From the NCBI GenBank assembly GCA_965217865.1, contig CBDCJO010000002.1, positions 5,280,001-5,344,000 on the forward strand: a stretch of 64,000 nt of DNA, in the 5' to 3' direction. The position numbers and the translations under genes were made by a program. The stretch is from Candidatus Latescibacterota bacterium (lineage in GTDB: Bacteria; Latescibacterota; UBA2968; SICM01). Below are positions 5,178 through 43,284 of the stretch, one piece after another. How positions within the stretch are numbered: the stretch's first letter is position 1; each line of letters opens with the position of its first letter. The notes below the pieces were generated by a model. It saw only the letters and a program-made list of their open reading frames with translations, had not been told where the DNA came from and did not search any database.

Positions 5178-5358
5178 CCCATATTTCCTGCAGGCCGTAT
5201 TTCGATATTCACTTCCCGACCCTAAACCTAAAAAGGTCCCGAGGCTTAATCCATGGTTCGCCAGGGGCGGGACCTTTCATGAGTTGATCTGTCACGTGTG
5301 ATTCAAAACCATCGGCAGTTCATTACATCTATTCGACACCGTTAATTTCTCAACCCTA

Positions 5359-7574: not shown

Positions 7575-8779
7575 ATGGGACAGTTTCGCATTCAAGCATG
7601 TCTGTTGATCCTCTGGTTCGCCGATGGATCGGCGCAATCATCCGTCGAACTTTCGAAGCCCTCTATCGATTTCGGAATAGCGCGGACCAAGAGGGCGGTG
7701 ACGGACACGGTCGGGGTCACCAACACGGGAGTTGTGGACATGTTTGTGGAGCGTATGGATATGCGGACCACGACTTTCGATCTGCCGCCTGAGGGTGTGA
7801 CATCCGGACCGTTGAAGATTCGGGACTGGCGAATCTTGCAGGGGAGGGTGTTGTCCTGCCGTTGAAAGCGGGGGAGACGAAGATCAGGGCGGCCGCCGGT
7901 GAGGTTGTGAGTCCGGATGCGGTCCTTCGAATCGTAGCCCGGGGTGACCTGAATGGGATTGCGGATGTGGAGGTCTCAGATGTCCTTCGGATGATCGATA
8001 TCATCCTGGAGGTCTCTCCGGAGCCGACCCCCCTTGAATTGAGTGCCGGCGATATGAATGGGGACGGGGGGATCGATGTCCTGGACCTCACGTGGATTAT
8101 CGACATGATCCTCGGAAAATCAGGACCCCCATCAACGAAATTCGCTGGCGTGACGGGATGTCGTTATGAGGTGAATGTGGGGGAAGAGGATGGCATGGCA
8201 GAGCTTATCCTGGATTGTCCAGAGGCCGTTCGGGTCGTGCAGATTGACTTGGTTGGGATTGAAAAAGGGATTGCGTCGGTCGGGGTTGCAGATGGGATGA
8301 CCCTGGCATACCACCAAATTTCTGAGGTAAAGACTCGTGTCTTGCTCTTCAGCCTGGAAGGAAAGGTTATTCCGCCGGGGAAGGGTCCGATTCTTGAGTT
8401 TCGAAAGGACGGGTGGATCGAGGAGTTGGTGGTTGCCGGCCGGAATTTTAAAGAAACGGTGTTGCAAAATGGGTTGCGGGGGGAAGAGGCCGGAGCGGAT
8501 TTCGGTTTTCGCCTTCGGCAGAGTTACCCGAATCCGGCCAACGGCGCTGTTGCGATCGGGTACGACGTGCCGGAGGCACTGGAGGTAAGCCTCGAGATCT
8601 TCGACCTGTTGGGTCGAAGCGTGATCCGATTAATGAAAGGGTATAGTTCGTCCGGCCGTCACCTCATGACTTGGAATGGAAAAGATGGAAAAGGACGGGG
8701 GGTGGGAAATGGGGTCTATTTCATTCGGCTGAAGGCCGGCGCTTTCGTCGACGTAAGAAAATTAGTCTGGTTAAAATAG
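7575..8779 (+). CDS. Secreted dockerin-like + FlgD/T9SS-type CTD protein, frameshifted near 7820 (ORFs 7575-7865 and 7862-8779)
   Basis: Signal peptide and Ig-like start (SIDFG...DTVGVTNTG). The second frame is open upstream of 7862 and carries paired GDLNG.ADV.VSDV / GDMNGDGGIDVLDL dockerin repeats and the C-terminal QSYPNPAN...WNGKD..G..V..GVYFIRL...KLVWLK. Confidence 0.75.
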
Positions 8780-22348: not shown

Positions 22349-22600
22349 GCATCAGCGGGCCACAGGCCCGTGATTCCTTGGCCCAGCCCAACGGGCTGGG
22401 TTTTGAATGTGGGCGCATCAGCGGGCCAACGGTCCGCGATCCGGACCAATCCCACACATACCTGTAGATGAATCAGGATGCGGGACAGGAATTGGGGGAT
22501 GTGAAATTATCGCGGCCCTTCAGGCCGCACGACGCTATTTTATTTCACTAACAGGGCGACTCGCCTGGGTTAAGGAACAACGCGCCGTTGGCGCTGAAAG
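22349..22600. mobile_element. Non-autonomous IS200-like palindromic element, copy 1
   Basis: Imperfect terminal inverted repeats (TCAGCGGGCC..GGCCCGTGATTCC / GGAACAACGCGCCGTTGGCGCTGA). The minus-strand centre reads PQFLSRILIHL plus a YVWD-type stub. Confidence 0.75.
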
Positions 22601-22636
22601 AAGGTTTTTGGTGGAAAGCGAAGTTCTTTAGGTGAC

Positions 22637-22851
22637 GCATCAACGGGCCAACGGCCCGTTGATTCCTTTGCCCAGTCCGACGGGCTGGGTTTTTAATGTG
22701 AGTGATTCGAGCGGGCCAACGGTCCGCGATCCGGATCAATCCCACCCATACCGTTATTATCGCGGCCCTTCAGGCCGCACGACGCTATTTTATTTCACTA
22801 ACCCAGGGCGTTGCCCTGGGTTGAGGAACAACGCGCCGTTGGCGCTGAAAG
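22637..22851. mobile_element. Non-autonomous IS200-like palindromic element, copy 2 (shortest centre)
   Basis: Same ends as copy 1, in tandem, inserted between the gldF-like and gldG-like genes. Confidence 0.75.
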
Positions 22852-22972
22852 AAACCCCTGACTACAGTCTCGGCGTCAAAACCATCCTGAATTGAAGAGG
22901 CCATTGCCTTTGATCTTCCTGCCAACTGCTGCCTTTCCCTGATCCTTGACCTCCGACCCCTGACCTCCGTTC

Positions 22973-35088: not shown

Positions 35089-36096
35089 GTGTCTGAAAAA
35101 ATCAGGCTCGCTTTTATCGGTTCGGGCGGCATTGTCCAGCACCATCTCGATCACGGTCTGAAGGACTTCGAGGATGTTGTTTTTGCCGGTTGGTGCGACC
35201 TCGACGAACAGACCGCCGCGGCTCGGAAGGAAGCTGTGGGGGGGCAGGGAGAGATCTATACGGATGCCGGCCGGATGCTTGACCAGGTCAAGCCCAATGC
35301 GGTCTATATCTCGCTACCGGTGTTCACCCACGGTCCCGCGGAACAACTCGTCATTGAGCGGAAGCTGCCTTTTTTCGTTGAAAAGCCTGTTGCCATAGAC
35401 CTGAGGACTGCCCGGATGGTCGCGGAAGGGGTCCACAAACACGGAATCCAGACAGCGGTGGGCTACATGAATCGCTATCGCTGGTCCGTCCAACGGGTCC
35501 GTGACCTGCTTCGAAATCGGAAGCCTGTCCTTTTGCACGGTGGTTGGATGAACGGAGGTCCGACTGCTTATGTGGGAATCGGAAAGTGGTGGGTTCAGAA
35601 GGATAAATCGGGGGGCCAATTTGTCGAACAGACGACACACACCACCGACCTCGTGCGATATCTGTTCGGGGAGGTCAAGTCCGTCTACGCTTCTGCGGTT
35701 CGAGATCGTCGGGAGCGGCCGGACTTTTATACGATCGAAGACGCATCGATGGTACAACTATCGTTTGAAAACGGGGCGGCCGCGGGCCTCTACAGCTCTT
35801 GCTGCACATCTGTCGGGGGTGGCGTCTCCCTGACGTTGTGGGCAACGGATATGAAAGCTGAATTCTCGGGTTGGGAAAATAACGTAAAGATCGACTTGCC
35901 CGGCGACGAAGAAATTACGATCCCGGGCGAGCCCAATATTTTTGCGATTGAAGATCGCGCCTTCATCGATTCCGTTAAAGCGGGCGAGAATCGGGGAATC
36001 CTCGCCACCTACGAAGATGGTTTGAAGGCCACCGCCATCGCCTGTGCTGCGAATGAATCGATGGAGACCGGAGAAGTTGTGAGTATCGAGGAATAA
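35089..36096 (+). CDS. Gfo/Idh/MocA family oxidoreductase
   Basis: IGSGGI Rossmann start, FVEKP, SGGQFVEQTTHTTD. Confidence 0.92.
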   Translation: MSEKIRLAFIGSGGIVQHHLDHGLKDFEDVVFAGWCDLDEQTAAARKEAVGGQGEIYTDAGRMLDQVKPNAVYISLPVFTHGPAEQLVIERKLPFFVEKPVAIDLRTARMVAEGVHKHGIQTAVGYMNRYRWSVQRVRDLLRNRKPVLLHGGWMNGGPTAYVGIGKWWVQKDKSGGQFVEQTTHTTDLVRYLFGEVKSVYASAVRDRRERPDFYTIEDASMVQLSFENGAAAGLYSSCCTSVGGGVSLTLWATDMKAEFSGWENNVKIDLPGDEEITIPGEPNIFAIEDRAFIDSVKAGENRGILATYEDGLKATAIACAANESMETGEVVSIEE

Positions 36097-36132
36097 GAAT
36101 CCGGTTAACACCCCGTTCAAGGTGAGAGATTG

Positions 36133-36912
36133 ATGGGCATAAAACAGTCGATTTGTTATCCCTTGTTCAAACCTGAGGACAAGAGTCTCGAATTTCTTCT
36201 CAAGACGGCGGCCGATATAGGTTACGCCGCCATTGAGCTGTGGAGACGCGGGAACGATTTTGAGGATGTCGTCGGGTTGGCCCGGAGGAACGGACTTGCG
36301 GTTGCCAGCATGTCGGGCCATGAATCTCTCCCGGATGGGTTGAACAAGAGATCCAATCACGATCGGATCGAGGAAGAGCTGATTATCTCGATCGATCTGG
36401 CGGCAGAACACGGAATCCCCGGCCTGATCTGTATGTGTGGAAACCGTCAGCCGTACCAGACCGAGGTCGAGGCCATTGAGGCCGTTGCGGACGGACTGAG
36501 ACGGGTGGCACCCTACGCAGAAAAGAAAGGCATCAACCTGAATCTTGAGCTTTTAAACTCGAAGGTGGATCATCCAGGATATCAGTGTGACCACACCGCC
36601 TGGGGCGTCGCGGTCTGCGAGCGGGTCGAGAGCCCTCGCGTGAAGCTGTTGTATGACATCTATCACATGCAGATCATGGAGGGAGATGTGATCCGAACGA
36701 TCCGGGAGAATATCCGGTGGATCGGTCACTTTCATACTGCCGGAAACCCTGGACGAAACGATATGGATGACTTGCAGGAGTTGAACTACCGGGGGATTTG
36801 TCAGGCCATTGTAGCCACGGATTATGACCTTTTTGTAGGGCACGAGTTCAGGCCGAAAGGGGATCGCATCGAATCGCTGAAGCAGACCTTTGTGACCTGC
36901 AATCAGGGATGA
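36133..36912 (+). CDS. Hydroxypyruvate isomerase-like TIM barrel (xylose-isomerase-like)
   Basis: ELLNSKVDHPGYQCD, KLLYDIYHMQIMEGD, HFHTAGNPGR and GHEF motifs. Confidence 0.9.
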   Translation: MGIKQSICYPLFKPEDKSLEFLLKTAADIGYAAIELWRRGNDFEDVVGLARRNGLAVASMSGHESLPDGLNKRSNHDRIEEELIISIDLAAEHGIPGLICMCGNRQPYQTEVEAIEAVADGLRRVAPYAEKKGINLNLELLNSKVDHPGYQCDHTAWGVAVCERVESPRVKLLYDIYHMQIMEGDVIRTIRENIRWIGHFHTAGNPGRNDMDDLQELNYRGICQAIVATDYDLFVGHEFRPKGDRIESLKQTFVTCNQG

Positions 36913-37164
36913 TCGAGGTGATGTAAGGGGAAATGCAAAGTGAAAAATGAAAAATGGAAATTGCAAAATTTACGACAGACCGGAGCTGAGCGCAACAATG
37001 ACCGCTATAGATTAGCAAATCATAAACCCTTAATCAATACATCCTGAGCCCTTCGACAAGCTCAGGATATACTCCGTTCCGCGTTTTTTGCGGAACGGAG
37101 TCGAAGGACGGGGAATGTCAGGGAGGAAAGTGCAGGAGGGCGAAGGTCGGAGGTTAGAGGCGAC

Positions 37165-37351
37165 GCATCAGCGGGCCAACGGTCCGCGATCCGGATCAAT
37201 CCCACACATACCGTAGATGAATCAGGATGCGGGACAGGAATTGGGGGATGGGAAATTATCGCGGCCCTTCAGGCCGCACGACGCTATTGCTTTCCAAGGG
37301 ACCCAGGGCGACTCGCCTGGGTTAAAGGACGACGCGCCGTTGGCGCTAAAA
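37165..37351. mobile_element. Non-autonomous IS200-like palindromic element, copy 3 (left end truncated)
   Basis: Minus strand 37249-37196 reads IPQFLSRILIHL-RYVWD*. Right end as in the other copies. Confidence 0.75.
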
Positions 37352-37439
37352 GAACGCCCTGTCTTTAGGCTCGGCTTTTCGATTTAGCTCCAAGGCCCCC
37401 GGGTGTCAACCGCGAAGACGGGGTCAACTATATTCCACT

Positions 37440-37465
37440 AAAAAAAAACCGAGGATACGCCTCGG
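37440..37465 (-). terminator. Intrinsic terminator (minus strand)
   Basis: CCGAGG-cgtat-CCTCGG followed by nine T on the minus strand. Confidence 0.85.
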
Positions 37466-37756
37466 AGGGGGATGAATCAAATATTATTTTACGGCCGCGA
37501 CTGTGGGGAGAGAATCCTCTACATCACAATCGCGACCGCTAAAAATTGTCCGGTGGCATAAACCTCCTATCACGGGGTTCATACGGAAAATGGTTCACGC
37601 CCGTGGTCCCTATGCACAAGCTTCGCGTCCACGCCCATCCACTTAATTTGGAATATTCAATTCCCGGTCAGATGAAGCGCTGACAATATATGGAGATGAT
37701 CCGAAGACGTTTTTGCTGAAGCGGACCATTTCGGACGCTTGTCGTAATCTTTCCCC
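37440..37756 (-). ncRNA. Candidate ~315-nt structured ncRNA of unknown family
   Basis: No ORF >=60 aa. Upstream TTGACT-17-TAACTT promoter, nested helices with G-U pairs that favour the minus strand, 5'/3' closing stem and U9 terminator. Confidence 0.55.
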
Positions 37757-37762
37757 GTTCAA

Positions 37763-37791
37763 AAGTTAATATATATCTGATGATAAGTCAA
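37763..37791 (-). promoter_or_regulatory. Putative sigma70 promoter for the candidate ncRNA
   Basis: Minus strand TTGACT (37791-37786), 17 nt, TAACTT (37768-37763). +1 would fall at the G of GGGGAAAG (37756). Confidence 0.5.
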
Positions 37792-37819
37792 GTTAATTGT
37801 CATTAGAAATAATAACGAA

Positions 37820-38884
37820 TCACGCCATTCGCATCCGAACCCCTACATCGTCCAGCAGGTCCAGGGCGCGTTGCCACATTCCAGCCTGATCTCCCGGTTC
37901 AGCTGCGTTTACGATTGCTTTTAGGGCCTCTTCCGAATACGTCACACCGTGGAAAGCACCATAACGCCTGCTTAGTTCCCGGAGGCCTTTCAGAACACCC
38001 TCCTGGTCCAGGGGAAGCATCGCAACGGACCGGAAATATTCGGTTATTCCGGGATCCGTCTTCACGCATGCCTCGATTTCCCCTTGAACGGCCCCGGCGA
38101 TTATCCGGACCCAACCCGCCTGGAGACCCGCCTGAAAGAAGGAACCGGTGGCTTTTCCCTCCAGGTCGATGAGATCGGCCAGACTTTGACAAAAGAGAAT
38201 GATATCCCCATCCTCCTTAACTTCCCGGATGGCCTGAAACAGCCTTTCCTCCAGTTGGCCTCGATACTTAGTTCCCATCACCATCCCCCCGGGGTCCAGT
38301 CTTAATATCCGTTTCCCGGCCAGGAAACCGAGGTTTTTTCCCCGGATCATTTCACAGGCCAATCCGGAAACGAATCGGATGATCTCCGCCCGGCTCGAGG
38401 CCGTCAAAACCACGCTGTTGTGAGCTCGTCGGGCGAGTGCGCTGGCAATCTCCTGGATTTCCCAGTCGTGTCCAGGTGCCGGATCGCGGACATCCTCCGC
38501 GGCCAGGAACGACATGTCCTCTAAGAAGTGGTCGAGGAATGGGGTTTTGCTCTTTTCCCGGTTGCTCGGTTCATCGCTTTTCCCCCTTTCCGGTGTCTTC
38601 CAGAGGGTATTGGCTTCTACAACAACCGTTTCGCTAATGGCCTCGGCCTGACCGCGATCTCGGGCTGCCAGCCCGATCAATTCCTGACCGATCTCCTCTG
38701 CAACCCCGGGGTCGAGGTACCGGCTCCATTCCAGGATCACCTTGTCGGCCGGAGGATTCCTTTTACCCCGTTCAATATCCGATAAATATGCTGGCGAGAT
38801 CCCACAGGCCTCTGCGAAAGTCCCCTGCAGGATTTTTCGGTCGGTCCTGTACTCTCGAAGCCTTTTTCCGAAGGCACTATTCAT
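37820..38884 (-). CDS. XRE-family HTH fused to a degenerate ClpA/B/C NBD1 (AAA+) domain
   Basis: FGKRLREYR...CGISPAYLSDIERGKRNPP HTH, then SKTPFLD.F..D...A.....DP..G...EI, KRILRLD...GTKYRGQLEERL, Y..FHGV.YS.EAL and ALDLLDD.G.R, collinear with ClpC NBD1. Confidence 0.85.
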   Translation of the reverse strand: MNSAFGKRLREYRTDRKILQGTFAEACGISPAYLSDIERGKRNPPADKVILEWSRYLDPGVAEEIGQELIGLAARDRGQAEAISETVVVEANTLWKTPERGKSDEPSNREKSKTPFLDHFLEDMSFLAAEDVRDPAPGHDWEIQEIASALARRAHNSVVLTASSRAEIIRFVSGLACEMIRGKNLGFLAGKRILRLDPGGMVMGTKYRGQLEERLFQAIREVKEDGDIILFCQSLADLIDLEGKATGSFFQAGLQAGWVRIIAGAVQGEIEACVKTDPGITEYFRSVAMLPLDQEGVLKGLRELSRRYGAFHGVTYSEEALKAIVNAAEPGDQAGMWQRALDLLDDVGVRMRMA

Positions 38885-38911
38885 ACAGGTTCTCCCATAG
38901 AAGGTGGAATA

Positions 38912-38954
38912 AATAATTAGCATATAAGCTAATTATTCTCAAGCTCAATGTCAA
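38912..38954 (-). promoter_or_regulatory. sigma70 promoter with an overlapping perfect palindromic operator
   Basis: Minus TTGACA (38954-38949)-17-TAGCTT. AATAATTAGC-atataa-GCTAATTATT (38912-38937) overlaps the -10 and +1. Confidence 0.75.
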
Positions 38955-39099
38955 GAATAAAATGTAAGCCCATTAATATAATTATCTTATGGAATCTATC
39001 AGTCGGGGGAAGGACGTAATGGGAGCGTTGGGTTGTTTTGAAATGCTGCAGGATTGAGGATCTACCTGGTTTTTGATGGAAAGCGAGGTGTGAAGCGAC

Positions 39100-39338
39100 G
39101 CATCAGCGGGCCAACGGCCCGTGATTCCTTGGCCCAGCCCAACGCTGGGTTTGAATGTGGACGATTCGAGGGGCCAAAGGTCCGCGACCCGGATCAATCC
39201 CACACATGCCGTTCATCGTAGGACAGGGATTGGGGGATGTGAAGTTATCGCGGCCTTTCAGGCCGCAGCACGGTACTGTATTTCACGACCCAGGGCGATG
39301 CCCTAGGTTGAGGAACCACGCGCCGTTGGCGTTGAAAG
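39100..39338. mobile_element. Non-autonomous IS200-like palindromic element, copy 4
   Basis: Full ends. Minus-strand centre reads IPQSLS-YDERHVWD*. Confidence 0.78.
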
Positions 39339-39361
39339 AAGTCCTTGACTTGGAGCGGCCT

Positions 39362-39571
39362 CTATCGTTCCGTCACCTTGAACCCTTCCTTTTCAAAGTC
39401 CTTCCGGTGTCCGGATTTTAGCGGAACGTCCATCGATATATAAACCATGTTCTGATCGAGCCGCTGTGTGAGGTTGTACCCTCCGAGGTTGAGCCTGAGG
39501 ATTCTCTCAACCCAGGGAAACTCGAGATTATCCGGAAGCGTGAGCGTATAACGATGTTGGAACTCTTCCAT
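39362..39571 (-). CDS. Small hypothetical protein (~69 aa)
   Basis: Protein-like sequence MEEFQHRYTLTLPDNLEFPWVERILRLNL... with AAGGT upstream. It lies between two repeat elements. Confidence 0.5.
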   Translation of the reverse strand: MEEFQHRYTLTLPDNLEFPWVERILRLNLGGYNLTQRLDQNMVYISMDVPLKSGHRKDFEKEGFKVTER

Positions 39572-39835
39572 AGTGAACCTTATGAAATCCACGCGCGCGT
39601 GAAATTCAATTTGCACCCGGCAGGTATAGAATATATTTTCCGGCTCTAGAAACTGCTCTCTGGATAAACTCCGCGGTTTTTGCCGCGCAGTCGAAGGAGG
39701 GCTTTATACGCTTGAGCATCCTTCGACTGCGTCCCCCAAACACCGGGGGACTCCGCTCTGGATATTTTGACTATTGGATTGTTTCGACAGTCGTACTGTA
39801 TTCTCATGTCCAGAACCATTGGTTTTGGAGGCGAT

Positions 39836-40084
39836 GTATCCGCGGGCCAACGGCCCGTGATTCCTTGGCCCAGCCCAACGGGCTGGGTTTGAATGTGGGC
39901 CCATCGATCGGGCCAACGGTCCGCGATCCGAATCAATCCCACACATACCGTAGATGAATCAGGATGCGGGAAAGGGATTGGGTGATGTGAAATTATCGCG
40001 GCCCTTCAGGCCGCACAACGCTGTTGTATTTCACCCAGGGCGGCTCGCCTGGTCTAAAGGACAACGCGCCGTTGGCGCTGAAAA
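39836..40084. mobile_element. Non-autonomous IS200-like palindromic element, copy 5 (plus a partial left arm at ~40109-40141)
   Basis: Minus-strand centre reads ITQSLSRILIHL-RYVWD*. Confidence 0.78.
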
Positions 40085-40246
40085 AAGGCTCTGCGAGGCA
40101 GGCGCAACAGCGGGCCAACGGTCCGCGACCCAGACCAATCCTCGAAGTGCCAATAAAATTACTGTCGTAGACGAGCAACGGCAAGCAATTTTTCACGATG
40201 GAAAAGATTCAGAATCCGAATTCCATATTCCAGATGGAGGGAAGGT

Positions 40247-41359
40247 ATGGCCGTCAAGATAGGGGAGCAGGATACAGGTTCCGTTGTCTATCAGGCAACG
40301 GAAGAGTTGCTTTTGAAATCGAATATCTATTGTGAGATTCCATACTGTTCCGCAGACTCGAGGACTTTCGTGTATGAACGGACTAATCCCGCATCGGAAC
40401 CGAACCCGATAGAATATGTGATTTGCGAGTTCGGGACATGGGAAACTCAGGTCGGTGGATGCGGACTCGGTGGTCCGGCGATCACCCACGAAGGGTTGCT
40501 CTATTTTCGAAGGATGGCCGGTGAGGTCGCCCAGGAACTGGTGCGTCTCAAATTGAGCACCGGAGCCTCGGAGGTGATCCACGATTTTCCGGAGGGTCTG
40601 AAACCCGTTGGCCTCGGGACGATGTCTCCAGGTGAGCGGTATTTCGCATATGGCGTGGCAATCAGCTATTCCCCCAGGATGTTCTGGATAGAGCTCCTGG
40701 ACCTGAATGCGGGCACCACAGAGATCATCAACACGGATCCGGACATCTGCAATCCTCACACTCAATTTGAACCGTCGGAGGGAAAGCAGGTGATGGTACA
40801 GCACAATCGAGGCTGTGAGTTCCTTCCGGACGGGACGCGGGTCAAGCTGGTCGGGGAGGAGGGGGCGACGGAGTATCTGCTGGATATCCCGGATGGAAAG
40901 GTGACCCGGCTCCAGGTGGGAAAGCCCTATACGACTCCCATTACCGGCCACGAATCCTGGATCGGAGATACGAAGGAGATCCTTCTCTCGGTCGGGACAG
41001 ATGGAGATTTCGCTCCAGAGAAAGGTAACCTCCTGGCTGTTCGGTCGGGTTCACCGGCTCGGGTGGCATCAAAGGGTTACACCTTCAGCCACGTGGGCAC
41101 TTCCGTCTGCGGGAGATTTTTCTGCTGCGACGATCATCCAAGCGCAGACTTGATCGTGGGTTCGATCCGTACGGGAAAGAACGCCGTGATCTGCCACTCG
41201 GAATCCTCATTCGGTTGGGGGGACCAGAACACACATCCCCATCCCTACCTGTCCCCTGATCTGAAGTGGACCGTGTTTAACTCGGACAGGAGTGGGGAAC
41301 CGCAGGTTCACGCTGCGACGATACCGGATGGGATGTTGGAAGAACTGGAACGGGCGTAA
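40247..41359 (+). CDS. Oligogalacturonate lyase-like beta-propeller protein
   Basis: NIYCE, H.QFEP, GHESW and HPHPYLSPD.KW.VFNSDRSG motifs. Confidence 0.75.
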   Translation: MAVKIGEQDTGSVVYQATEELLLKSNIYCEIPYCSADSRTFVYERTNPASEPNPIEYVICEFGTWETQVGGCGLGGPAITHEGLLYFRRMAGEVAQELVRLKLSTGASEVIHDFPEGLKPVGLGTMSPGERYFAYGVAISYSPRMFWIELLDLNAGTTEIINTDPDICNPHTQFEPSEGKQVMVQHNRGCEFLPDGTRVKLVGEEGATEYLLDIPDGKVTRLQVGKPYTTPITGHESWIGDTKEILLSVGTDGDFAPEKGNLLAVRSGSPARVASKGYTFSHVGTSVCGRFFCCDDHPSADLIVGSIRTGKNAVICHSESSFGWGDQNTHPHPYLSPDLKWTVFNSDRSGEPQVHAATIPDGMLEELERA

Positions 41360-41542
41360 CGCCCCGCAACCCATCCACCCAGGAATACAGAATATAGAAT
41401 GCAGAAGAAAGACCATCTGACTTTCACTCTGCATTCTGAATATTGCTTCTTATATTCTGTTTTTTCTGTTCGACCTGTGCTTCATTCTGACTCCTGACTC
41501 CTGACTCCTGTATTCTGAATTCTGATTTTCTTTGAGGTTTTT

Positions 41543-42838
41543 ATGACTAACGACACGGTCTTTGAAATGGGATCCACACAGCTCCGTTTCGGGACAGGTG
41601 GAACGCGAGAAATAGGGATGGACCTGGTGGATTTGGGAACAAAGCGCGCGATGGTCCTGACGGACTCGAATCTGTCCGGTCTTCCCCCGGTCCAGACCGC
41701 CATTGAATCTCTAAAGGCTGAGGGGATCGATTTCGCTCTCTTCGATCGGGTAAGGGTCGAACCGAACGATGTGTCCTTCAGGGAAGCCATCTCCTTCGCC
41801 GAAGATGGGAAGTTCGATGCGTATGTGGCGGTGGGGGGAGGATCGACGATAGACACTGCAAAGGCTGCGAATCTCTATACCACCTACCCAGACGAATTCC
41901 TGGCCTACGTGAATGCCCCGATCGGTCAGGGAAAGCCTGTTCCTGGCCCCCTCAAACCTCTGATTGCAGTACCCACCACCGCGGGTACCGGGAGTGAAAC
42001 CACCGGGGTCGCAATATTTGACCTTAGTGATCGGCACATCAAAACAGGGATCGCCCACCGAAGATTGAGGCCGACGCTTGGTATCGTCGATCCGGAGAAC
42101 ACCCGGACCCTCCCGTCCGTAGTGGCTGCATCGACAGGGCTGGATGTACTTTGCCACGCACTTGAATCCTATACCGCACTTCCTTTCCATTGCCGTCCTC
42201 ATCCAGAACGACCGATCCTCAGGCCGGCCTACCAGGGATCCAATCCGATCAGCGACATCTGGTCTGTGAAGGCGATTGAGCTGGTCTCACGCTATCTTAT
42301 TCGAGCTTCAGCAGATCCGGAAGACGACGAAGCCCGTGAGAACATGCTGCTGGCTTCTTCATATGCAGGCATGGGATTCGGGAATGCGGGTGTTCACCTT
42401 TGCCACGGCATGTCATATCCGGTCTCGGGGATGGTTCGGAGTTTCCGGCCCGAAGGGTTCGTTTCTGACCATCCGATCGTCCCACACGGGATATCGGTGG
42501 TGCTCAATGCCCCGGCCGTGTTCAGGTTCACGGGACCGGCATGCCCGGATCGACATCTGCGGGGGGCCGAACTGTTGGGGGCGGATAGTTCAACCCTGAA
42601 GGACCCGGAGGGAGAAGCGGGTGACTTTTTGGCCTCCAGGATTGTCGATATGATGAAACGCCTGGAGATGCCCAATGGTCTCTCCGCAGTCGGGTATACC
42701 GAAAAGGACATCCCCGACCTTGTGGAGGGAACCCTGCCGCAGCACCGGGTGACGAAACTTTCTCCGAGGCCAGCGGGAAAAGATGATCTCCAGAGGCTGT
42801 TTGAAGATGCTATGGTGGCGTGGGCAGAAAAGCAGTAG
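41543..42838 (+). CDS. Hydroxyacid-oxoacid transhydrogenase (iron-containing ADH family, ADHFE1-like)
   Basis: VGGGSTIDTAKAANLY, YVNAPIG.GKP, PTTAGTGSETTG, KTGIA, GNAGVHLCHGMSYPVSG and PHGISV. Confidence 0.92.
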   Translation: MTNDTVFEMGSTQLRFGTGGTREIGMDLVDLGTKRAMVLTDSNLSGLPPVQTAIESLKAEGIDFALFDRVRVEPNDVSFREAISFAEDGKFDAYVAVGGGSTIDTAKAANLYTTYPDEFLAYVNAPIGQGKPVPGPLKPLIAVPTTAGTGSETTGVAIFDLSDRHIKTGIAHRRLRPTLGIVDPENTRTLPSVVAASTGLDVLCHALESYTALPFHCRPHPERPILRPAYQGSNPISDIWSVKAIELVSRYLIRASADPEDDEARENMLLASSYAGMGFGNAGVHLCHGMSYPVSGMVRSFRPEGFVSDHPIVPHGISVVLNAPAVFRFTGPACPDRHLRGAELLGADSSTLKDPEGEAGDFLASRIVDMMKRLEMPNGLSAVGYTEKDIPDLVEGTLPQHRVTKLSPRPAGKDDLQRLFEDAMVAWAEKQ

Positions 42839-42864: not shown

Positions 42865-43121
42865 GCATGGCGGGCAAACGGCCCGTGATTCCTTGGCCCA
42901 GTCCAACGGGCTGGGTTTGAATGTGGTGAATCGAGCGGGCCAACGGTCCGCGATCCGGATCAATCCCACACATACCGTTCATCGTAAGCCACTCGATACC
43001 GTCCCAACAACCGTCGGTATGTGAAATTATCGCGGCCTTTCAGGCCGCACCACGCTATTGCTTTCCAAGGACTCAGGGCGATGCCCTGGGTTGCGGAACA
43101 ACGCGCCGTTGGCGCTGAAAG
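42865..43121. mobile_element. Non-autonomous IS200-like palindromic element, copy 6
   Basis: Minus-strand centre reads YRRLLGRYRVAYDERYVWD*, the longest C-terminal transposase stub. Confidence 0.8.
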
Positions 43122-43284
43122 AATGCCTTGACTATAGTATAGGCCTTTGTAAGGATCGCCCCGATTCCCGGAAAGCGTCAAAGATCCTTTCCAGGAATTA
43201 TTTTTAAAGGCTCGGTGGGTTGGTTCTAGCCCTATTCCATCCCTTTATCGTCCGAACGGGTACCAAAACCCAGATTCCATTTGG

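Follow-up and report, generated by a model that had tools for sequence, protein, structure and literature searches.

What becomes of the first ATPase module of a Clp unfoldase once its catalytic motifs have been lost and a DNA-binding domain has been placed in front of it? This question is raised by one gene in a 64,000-nucleotide (nt) stretch of Candidatus Latescibacterota bacterium (assembly GCA_965217865.1, contig CBDCJO010000002.1, positions 5,280,001 to 5,344,000), which was analyzed as a whole and is referred to here as the window. The gene encodes an XRE-type helix-turn-helix (HTH) domain fused to a ClpC-type nucleotide-binding domain 1 (NBD1) in which the ATPase motifs are replaced, and a perfect palindrome lies over its promoter. 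An earlier note, made from the letters of the window alone, had drawn attention to this arrangement. The comparative data gathered since then suggest that the protein could be an autorepressor, in which the dead NBD1 would serve as a module for binding a partner or ligand and whose main output would be its own abundance, a reading that is given about an even chance of being right.

The gene is located on the minus strand, in an open frame that runs uninterrupted from 38923 to 37820. The ATG at 38884 was taken as its start codon because the 41 aligned homologues all begin with M-x-x-A-F-G and a ribosome-binding site, GGGAGA (38891-38896), is found 6 nt upstream. Its G+C content is 0.566, compared with 0.55 for the genome. 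The protein is divided into the following parts:

37820 to 38884, minus strand: coding sequence (CDS) of the XRE-HTH/pseudo-ClpC-NBD1 protein, 354 amino acids (aa), stop codon at 37820-37822.
38651 to 38884, minus strand: residues 1-78, XRE HTH plus a long extra helix (59-78), matched by Pfam HTH_3 and HTH_31; AlphaFold2 (AF2) predicted local distance difference test (pLDDT) 87-95.
38549 to 38650, minus strand: residues 79-112, linker, predicted to be disordered (pLDDT below 50 for 80-109).
38015 to 38548, minus strand: residues 113-290, large (alpha/beta) subdomain of the ClpC-type NBD1, predicted to be ATPase-dead, placed by alignment and Foldseek.
37823 to 38014, minus strand: residues 291-354, AAA lid (small) subdomain, placed by AAA_lid_9; the ClpC alignment ends in ...AIDLIDEAGSKVR.

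The earlier note had read an intact XRE HTH and an NBD1 of the ClpA/ClpB/ClpC kind in one uninterrupted open reading frame (ORF), and Pfam, NCBIfam, the ClpC alignment, AF2 and Foldseek all agree with it. In the Pfam scan of the 354-aa protein, HTH_3 (residues 9-50; 37.5 bits, cut-off 23), HTH_31 (36.4 bits, cut-off 27; together with HTH_3 spanning residues 4-50) and AAA_lid_9 (residues 299-353; 23.2 bits, cut-off 22.8) exceed their thresholds, and no match to AAA (PF00004), Clp_N or AAA_2 was obtained. The profile combination that the note had suggested, HTH_3 with AAA and AAA_lid_9, is thus recovered at both ends, with the AAA core between them left without a match. The NCBIfam models of ClpA, ClpB, ClpG, ClpK and ClpV cover only residues ~100-353, with 95.8 bits for ClpA (cut-off 993) and 92.7 bits for ClpB (cut-off 1232). 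Among proteins of solved structure, the closest matches are B. subtilis ClpC, S. aureus ClpC and T. thermophilus ClpB (phmmer, E 4e-29 to 1e-26), and the alignment to ClpC extends from the TP.LD motif behind the ClpC N-domain to A.D..D..G.R, so that the lid subdomain ends where the ClpC M-domain would be inserted. In an AF2 model calculated from the 41-row alignment (mean pLDDT 86.4), residues 1-78 form a folded HTH part and residues 80-109 a disordered linker (pLDDT <50), followed by a folded AAA+ module, which Foldseek superimposes on the NBD1 of ClpC1 and ClpC over ~245 residues with a root mean square deviation of 2.6-3.3 A. A full-length homodimer prediction returned scores of 0.00 and 0.00, which amount to no verdict, and was not used to judge the oligomeric state. 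Residues 80-96 of the linker (~38597-38647) carry a semi-conserved acidic-aromatic motif, A-E-A-V-x-E-x-V-x-E...I/L-W, followed by a variable charged stretch; this motif could represent a short linear motif, for example a degron or a pseudo-substrate of the pore loop.

Within the NBD1, the sites that matter for catalysis and for substrate contact have fared very differently:

38381 to 38404, minus strand: degenerate Walker A, residues 161-168, TASSRAEI in place of GEPGVGKT, by alignment to B. subtilis ClpC.
38243 to 38275, minus strand: pore-loop-1 block G-T-K-Y-R-G-Q-L-E-E-R, residues 204-214, by family alignment.
38183 to 38200, minus strand: degenerate Walker B, residues 229-234, IILFCQ-S in place of hhhhDE, by ClpC alignment; the site reads FCQS.
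38033 to 38044, minus strand: former arginine-finger site, residues 281-284, TEYF in place of ERRF, by ClpC alignment.

Each of the replacements named in the earlier note (TASSRAEI, FCQS and TEYF), as well as the preserved pore loop, in which GTKYRGEFEDRL stands opposite GTKYRGQLEERL, can be seen in the ClpC alignment; the solved ClpC chain used for the Walker B comparison is itself a Walker B mutant. The pattern extends to the entire family, as judged from an alignment of 41 homologues of 42-95% identity. A GxxGxGK[ST] motif is present in none of them, the position of the P-loop lysine being occupied by Glu or Asp in 33. Likewise, none of the 41 has the Asp-Glu pair of Walker B, with His or Pro followed by Ser or Asn at positions 233 and 234, and no homologue has an Arg at 282 or 283, where Glu, Asp or Ala and, in 35 of 41 cases, Cys are found instead. 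The protein should be unable to bind or hydrolyze ATP. The pore block, on the other hand, is invariant at G204, K206, Y207, G209, Q210, E212, E213 and R214, and R208 is kept in 40 of 41, so that loss of the Walker motifs together with retention of the pore loop is a conserved property. Within the family, mean pairwise identity is highest in the pore block (0.85), followed by the HTH part (0.64), the lid (0.54), the large subdomain (0.48) and the linker (0.27). When the family was compared with 47 true Clp NBD1s, including the genome's own ClpC and ClpB, 40 positions with the same conserved residue were identified, among them the TP.LD.F..D start, GLA, the K-Y-R-G-Q-x-E-E-R pore loop and lid residues; at 59 positions where conservation among the Clp proteins reaches 90% or more, the family differs from them.

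The second half of the argument concerns the region upstream of the start codon, where the earlier note had described a perfect 10-6-10 palindrome overlapping a TTGACA-17-TAGCTT promoter. The letters of both elements were confirmed:

38912 to 38937, no strand assigned: predicted operator, perfect 10-6-10 palindrome AATAATTAGC-TTATAT-GCTAATTATT with the conserved core TTAGC-N6-GCTAA.
38926 to 38954, minus strand: promoter-like TTGACA (38954-38949), 17 nt, TAGCTT (38931-38926), the -10 hexamer being the left arm of the operator.

In the genome of 6.43 Mb, a single copy of the core TTAGC-N6-GCTAA is present, compared with 12 copies of the reversed control pattern. Among relatives, the exact core is found once each in G094 and G099, in both cases upstream of the orthologue, and twice in G095, where one copy belongs to the orthologue and the other falls within a 518-aa ORF. 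It is absent from G039, where the upstream region has been replaced. Related palindromes are also found in metagenome members of the family (L094/L095, L096/L097 and L098), 28-70 nt ahead of the start codon, namely TTAGCTTATAAGCAT, a perfect palindrome of 30 nt built around GCTTATAAGC, and TTAGCATATATGCTA. By eye, six of the seven distinct family promoters share one layout, in which a hexamer resembling TTGACA is followed after 17 nt by a -10-like hexamer (TAGCTT, TATGCT or TAGCAT) that forms the left arm of the operator; L088, with a spacer of 14 nt, is the exception. One strain variant converts the spacer of the operator into TTATAA, the form found in G094 and G095, and no variant in the arms is among those listed (6 of the 12 differences of the contig with the spacer variant). 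In several orthologue promoters, a second, imperfect operator-like site (TTAGCATATCAGCGAA, TTAGCATATAAGCGAA, TAAGCTAATAAGCTAA) is located 30-130 nt upstream of the main operator (L086, ~7800-7815; L087, upstream of the gene; L096, ~5306-5321). Such sites would suit cooperative binding or looping; none was found at the promoter in the window.

The family to which the gene belongs is small and well delimited. A word-indexed protein search returned 43 homologues (E <= 8.5e-54, 42-95% identity, 236-381 aa) on contigs of several independent sources, followed by true Clp fragments at E 2e-32. PF00004 was detected in none of the 43, and HTH families in 40; the remaining three are a 290-aa fragment (P0044), a protein with an aberrant N-terminus (P0034) and P0041, for which an intact, near-identical version (P0128) exists. 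In a library of 1.84 billion representatives, eight entries scored above 290 bits, four full-length and four fragmentary, and the next entry was an ordinary ClpC with an intact P-loop, which makes the family rare (~4-8 clusters). Within the phylum, the gene is present in five of 168 genomes, including this one, across four families. The genome's own ClpC is 76.5% identical to a fragment labeled Latescibacterota, a label that one family member bears as well; for the placement of this genome in the phylum, this is no more than a hint. This census was made by genome search combined with an HTH-only alignment, instead of by profile search of the genome contigs with the full alignment; the latter yielded at least 598 stretches, recovering true ClpC via KYRGQ[LF]EE, with a best identity of 34% and no family member among the matches listed. 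In the ESM Atlas, only generic AAA clusters were obtained, at 0.83-0.84 and thus under the 0.9 level. A scan of viral contigs gave five loci with short HTH matches (16-29 aa) and no family member, and the matches in PADLOC and PHROGs were restricted to generic HTH and Clp-protease entries; an origin as a defense system or from a phage was therefore set aside.

In a quick maximum-likelihood tree, a single branch, with a Shimodaira-Hasegawa-like approximate likelihood-ratio test (SH-aLRT) value of 100, separates 40 family NBDs from 47 Clp NBD1s. Because one branch divides the two groups, the losses of the catalytic motifs appear to be as old as the fusion itself, which would have arisen once. 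The separating branch measures ~2.3 substitutions per site, and the branches inside the family are longer. In the orthologue of G039 (L089, G039:C3, 7941-9008, minus strand), unrelated sequence stands in place of the first 27 codons, corresponding to HTH helices 1-2, and of the whole promoter and operator. This natural truncation at the 5' end has left an open frame with the NBD only; P0128 (357 aa) is otherwise identical to the G039 protein and has a normal N-terminus. The HTH module has a wider distribution. Small XRE proteins of ~120-136 aa on metagenome contigs (L099-L103, L106) share its recognition-helix signature, ISPAYLSDIE-G-R/K-RNPP, and have no Clp part, and the same signature is found in L104/L108 on ~370-aa proteins with a different C-terminal domain. 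As the signature recurs both without a Clp part and with other C-terminal domains, the HTH appears to belong to a wider subfamily fused to different sensors.

Estimates of selection come from the only close pair for which DNA was at hand, the genes of G095 and G094 (96% nucleotide identity). With 22 synonymous and 24 nonsynonymous changes, the ratio of nonsynonymous to synonymous substitution rates (dN/dS) for the whole gene is 0.35; by region, it amounts to 0.13 in the HTH, 0.12 in the linker and 0.51 in the NBD. Strain variants were obtained by aligning the contigs of four public runs on a segment containing the gene, and the best-supported 40 of 215 variant places were considered; runs that share only small parts of this segment (X13-X16, X18-X20) were left out. 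Of these, 31 are located in the CDS (19 synonymous, 12 nonsynonymous); all five variants in the HTH part and all three in the pore-loop codons 204, 208 and 210 are synonymous. All 12 indels among those listed fall outside the CDS, although the CDS makes up 73% of the segment. Contigs from an RNA library (run X17), 90-99% alike, cover parts of the gene, which is not proof of transcription. A contig joint in run X3 that skips 37951-38661 was discarded as unreliable, its shorter side comprising only 26 letters. The gene thus appears to be under purifying selection. The earlier note had expected related fusions, Walker loss shared among them and a Clp part that does not evolve neutrally; 43 homologues, catalytic motifs in 0 of 41 and dN/dS values below 1, both overall and for the NBD, bear it out. 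Taken together, a pseudo-ATPase under selection, as opposed to a decaying gene, is supported by the comparisons of family and strains.

How might such a protein work? Because the palindrome lies over the -10 hexamer, is conserved together with the gene and is absent elsewhere, autorepression appears to be the most economical reading of the comparative data, and the autoregulation proposed in the earlier note fits an operator that is conserved across orthologues and unique in the genomes. In this model, the protein would act as a stand-alone, one-component regulator whose XRE HTH, presumably as a dimer, binds TTAGC-N6-GCTAA over its own -10 hexamer and thereby shuts off transcription of its own gene. 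The dead NBD1 would bind a polypeptide or factor that normally engages the first ring of ClpC, for example a substrate that is unfolded or tagged, an adaptor, or a toxin or natural product directed at ClpC. Such binding would pull the protein off the operator and relieve repression. Since no other operator was found at a promoter in the organism's own genome (G000), G094, G095 or G099, the output would be more of the protein itself, which might then serve as a demand-driven decoy, sponge or sensor.

A binding role of the NBD1 is suggested by the nature of its preserved residues. For the ClpB hexamer, it was described that K250, Y251 and R252 clamp the substrate, that K250-E254 and R252-E256 bridge neighboring pore loops, and that charge reversals at these residues abolish casein binding (PMC6546751). 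The equivalent residues in the protein studied here, K206, Y207, R208 and E212, are invariant or nearly so. As the residues kept are those of the substrate clamp and of the bridges between pore loops, the strictest selection within the domain points, by analogy to ClpB, to a binding function and not to mere folding. A bolder version of this idea, which we regard as doubtful, holds that the dead NBD1, alone or on the host ClpC, may form a pore-loop spiral that grips unfolded or tagged polypeptides without ATP via K-Y-R...E-E-R.

Many XRE regulators both regulate themselves and control other genes, and the palindrome could accordingly be just the autoregulatory site of a classical transcription factor that governs a wider regulon, for example of stress or proteostasis genes, via degenerate or half sites. 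A position weight matrix (PWM) was built from seven sites, whose own scores are 27-39 bits, and ~23.6 bits were reckoned to be needed for one chance match in 1.3e7 positions. Besides the operator itself, the best site in G000 reached 22.6 bits (C2:2235397), and the remaining matches were at or below 18 bits. The best site overlaps a 16.7-bit site in which 15 consecutive bases (ATTAGCTTATATGCT) are identical to the operator (C2:2235389-2235418). The site with these bases overlaps an imperfect GCTTATCAGC site resembling the secondary sites upstream of the G094 and G095 orthologues. It is situated between convergent genes, a 73-aa ORF and the end of another ORF, which from its sequence we take to be rsmG and whose stop codon adjoins the site, and not at a promoter; it may mark a place where the gene once stood, or act as a decoy. 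A weak AAGC-N6-GCT site was found 24 nt before a 202-aa ORF (C2:77381). Together with the second imperfect sites in G094, G095 and L096, these two places are what a wider regulon could build on. However, the exact core is found nowhere else in G000, G094 and G099, the additional copy in G095 is intragenic, all other G000 matches stay under ~23.6 bits, and no neighboring gene is conserved. The PWM and relaxed-pattern scans of G000 gave no operator near clpC (~C2:1328770) or clpB (~C2:4835297) and, apart from C2:2235389, nothing over the chance level. The link from proteostasis to the transcription of other genes that the earlier note had envisaged therefore finds no support in these data, and a wider regulon is considered rather unlikely.

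The remaining explanations concern the Clp-derived part. The dead NBD1 could be an oligomerization scaffold only, without a ligand, which raises the avidity or cooperativity of the HTH and keeps the pore block for folding or assembly. AAA+ domains are natural oligomerization modules, the KYR/E-E residues make contacts between protomers in ClpB (PMC6546751), and the second operator-like site at some promoters would suit a higher-order oligomer. Yet the P-loop and arginine fingers that hold NBD1 rings together via nucleotide are gone in 41 of 41 homologues, and a scaffold leaves unexplained why a solvent-exposed K-Y-R should be the most conserved part of the domain (0.85 vs. 0.48 for the large subdomain). 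In addition, simpler dimerization helices are the rule among XRE proteins, and the scaffold is judged unlikely. Alternatively, in line with the co-assembly suggested in the earlier note, the pseudo-NBD1 might insert into or dock on the ring of the host ClpC as a regulatory or poisoning subunit, so that the availability of the repressor would be tied to ClpC assembly or the repressor would be degraded. The domain indeed resembles ClpC most (32% identical to the ClpC of this genome, E 3e-34, vs. 29% to ClpB), the pore-loop residues that face neighboring protomers are kept, and the host has one ClpC and one ClpB. However, the protein lacks the D2 ring, M-domain and N-domain, it shows no co-occurrence or neighborhood signal with clpC, and its NBD is separated from ClpC by a branch of ~2.3 substitutions per site; docking is regarded as quite improbable. 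A decaying gene or an assembly or fusion artefact without function, for which the replaced first 27 codons and operator of the G039 copy might be cited, is extremely improbable in view of the 43 homologues of narrow length range from several independent sources, the invariant residues in both domains, the synonymous bias, the avoidance of the CDS by indels and the intact form of the G039 protein (P0128).

Several points also weigh against the autorepressor model itself. The ligand is a guess, and binding to the operator is deduced from sequence. The -10 hexamers were assigned by eye, and a consensus promoter scan listed other hexamer pairs and not TTGACA/TAGCTT. The operator model derives from seven sites that are all autoregulatory, so that a regulon of weak or half sites would be missed, and 15 nt of the operator do recur between the convergent genes at C2:2235389. 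The K-Y-R/E-E contacts seen in ClpB require a ring of protomers, and NBD1 rings normally need ATP, to which this protein is not expected to bind. The dN/dS of the NBD is only moderately low and is calculated from 33 substitutions, and the strain-variant evidence comprises 40 of 215 variant places. Lastly, the analogy to mycobacterial ClpC2, which is taken up below, is one of logic only, since ClpC2 copies the N-domain and not NBD1.

The genomic surroundings give little indication of a functional partner. The neighbors differ between the loci of the window, the relatives and the metagenome members; hence the gene appears to be monocistronic and without a conserved partner. A KamA-like radical-SAM gene, found upstream in G094, G095 and G099 (three of the four relatives' loci), was rejected as a partner, as it is missing from this place in the window and in L094/L096; its nearest homologue in G000 is located at C2:1174278. 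The gene possesses a promoter of its own; in these three relatives, it comes after the terminator of the upstream gene. Genes in the regions 35089-36912 and 40247-42838, which from their translations we take to encode a Gfo/Idh/MocA-type oxidoreductase, a TIM-barrel sugar-phosphate isomerase/epimerase-like protein, a 370-aa beta-propeller-like protein and an iron-containing alcohol dehydrogenase, seem to belong to everyday metabolism of sugars and alcohols, and no link to the fusion gene was seen, no family search having been made for them. Downstream of the stop codon, one further element was predicted:

37449 to 37465, minus strand: terminator-like hairpin with T-run, ~355 nt downstream of the stop codon, the nearest one predicted, by consensus match only.

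Between the stop codon and this hairpin, a promoter-like TTAACT-17-TATATT and a 28-codon ORF (MVRFSKNVFG...; 37690-37776, minus strand) are found. The segment is probably non-coding because strain variants carry many indels there. Copies of a dispersed repeat flank the gene on both sides (37060-37400, 39085-39351 and 39828-40153; ~200-340 nt, 76-92% alike), with further copies in the window at 22414-22874 and 42934-43148. The repeat contains inverted segments of the GCCAACGG...CCGTTGGC type, gives 99 blastn hits in the genome and 46 copies of at least 150 nt (39 on C2, 7 on C1), and is the source of spurious ORFs starting with MGLIRIADRWP. It looks like a miniature inverted-repeat transposable element (MITE) or a repetitive extragenic palindromic (REP) element; an Rfam search of 36500-40500 of the window (E <= 0.1) gave no match.

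Comparison with known systems shows that the parts and the logic of the protein are each known and that their combination, an XRE HTH with a dead Clp NBD1, is new. Full-text searches of the literature returned no description of an XRE-Clp NBD1 fusion. In public databases, members are named "helix-turn-helix domain-containing protein" or, wrongly, "ClpA/ClpC," and given the rarity of the family a correct description would be useful for annotation. With ClpC and ClpC1, the protein shares the NBD1 fold within boundaries that run exactly from the N-domain linker to the M-domain insertion point. It differs by the lack of Clp_N, the M-domain and the D2 ring, by an XRE HTH where the N-domain would be, and by the replacement of Walker A, Walker B and arginine fingers in 41 of 41 homologues with the K-Y-R pore loop retained. 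The HTH is of the same XRE type as that of ClgR and of restriction-modification C proteins (phmmer, E 6.5e-5 to ClgR 3f51 and 2e-4 to C.AhdI 1y7y), and control-protein models of PADLOC match it at 1e-6. C proteins bind palindromes that overlap their own promoters. Both ClgR and the C proteins are small, single-domain proteins without a Clp-derived part, and actinobacterial ClgR activates clp genes, whereas no operator was found at clp genes here.

The build of the protein has its closest precedent in BzdR, which was described as an XRE-type HTH, a linker and an enzymatically dead domain that derives from a P-loop NTPase and binds an effector (PMC3602430). The predicted order of an N-terminal XRE HTH, a linker and a dead, NTPase-derived C-terminal domain is the same as in BzdR/BoxR; the sensor of BzdR, however, stems from shikimate kinase and not from an AAA+ Clp NBD1, and BzdR controls a catabolic operon with benzoyl-CoA as effector. 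The BzdR-type model PRK08154 matches residues 3-43 only (E 0.0011, 18 bits, cut-off 204). BzdR serves, by analogy, as a precedent for an effector-controlled repressor composed of an XRE HTH, a linker and a dead NTPase domain.

The regulatory logic is most similar to that of mycobacterial ClpC2, a partial, non-proteolytic homologue of ClpC1 that was reported to repress its own promoter by binding a pseudopalindrome there, to be released when the ligand cyclomarin A occupies its Clp-derived domain, which makes its own level the output, and to act as a sponge that protects ClpC1 (PMC10030653); a 2026 preprint places its repressor activity under phosphoarginine control (10.64898/2026.06.30.735635). 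Common to both systems would be a partial Clp copy with a palindromic operator at its own promoter, conserved among homologues, and here, too, the operator was found just at the protein's own promoter, save for the intragenic copy in G095. In contrast, the copied part in ClpC2 is the N-terminal domain of ClpC1, which also contacts the DNA, whereas the part copied here is NBD1 and DNA binding is assigned to the XRE HTH, so that the two share no homologous part. If the autorepressor model is correct, pieces of the ClpC unfoldase have been turned at least twice into a self-regulating, DNA-binding decoy or sensor, once from the N-domain in ClpC2 and once from the first ATPase ring. The family would then be a natural experiment on the K-Y-R pore loop of NBD1 in the absence of ATP, arginine fingers and a second ring, and would supply a compact, orthogonal pair of repressor and operator, with an inducer that reports on the state of Clp. 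Should the gripping of polypeptides without ATP also prove true, a DNA-binding protein would directly sense the substrate load of ClpC or a toxin directed at ClpC, and the ClpC2 principle would have been invented a second time, independently, from another Clp module.

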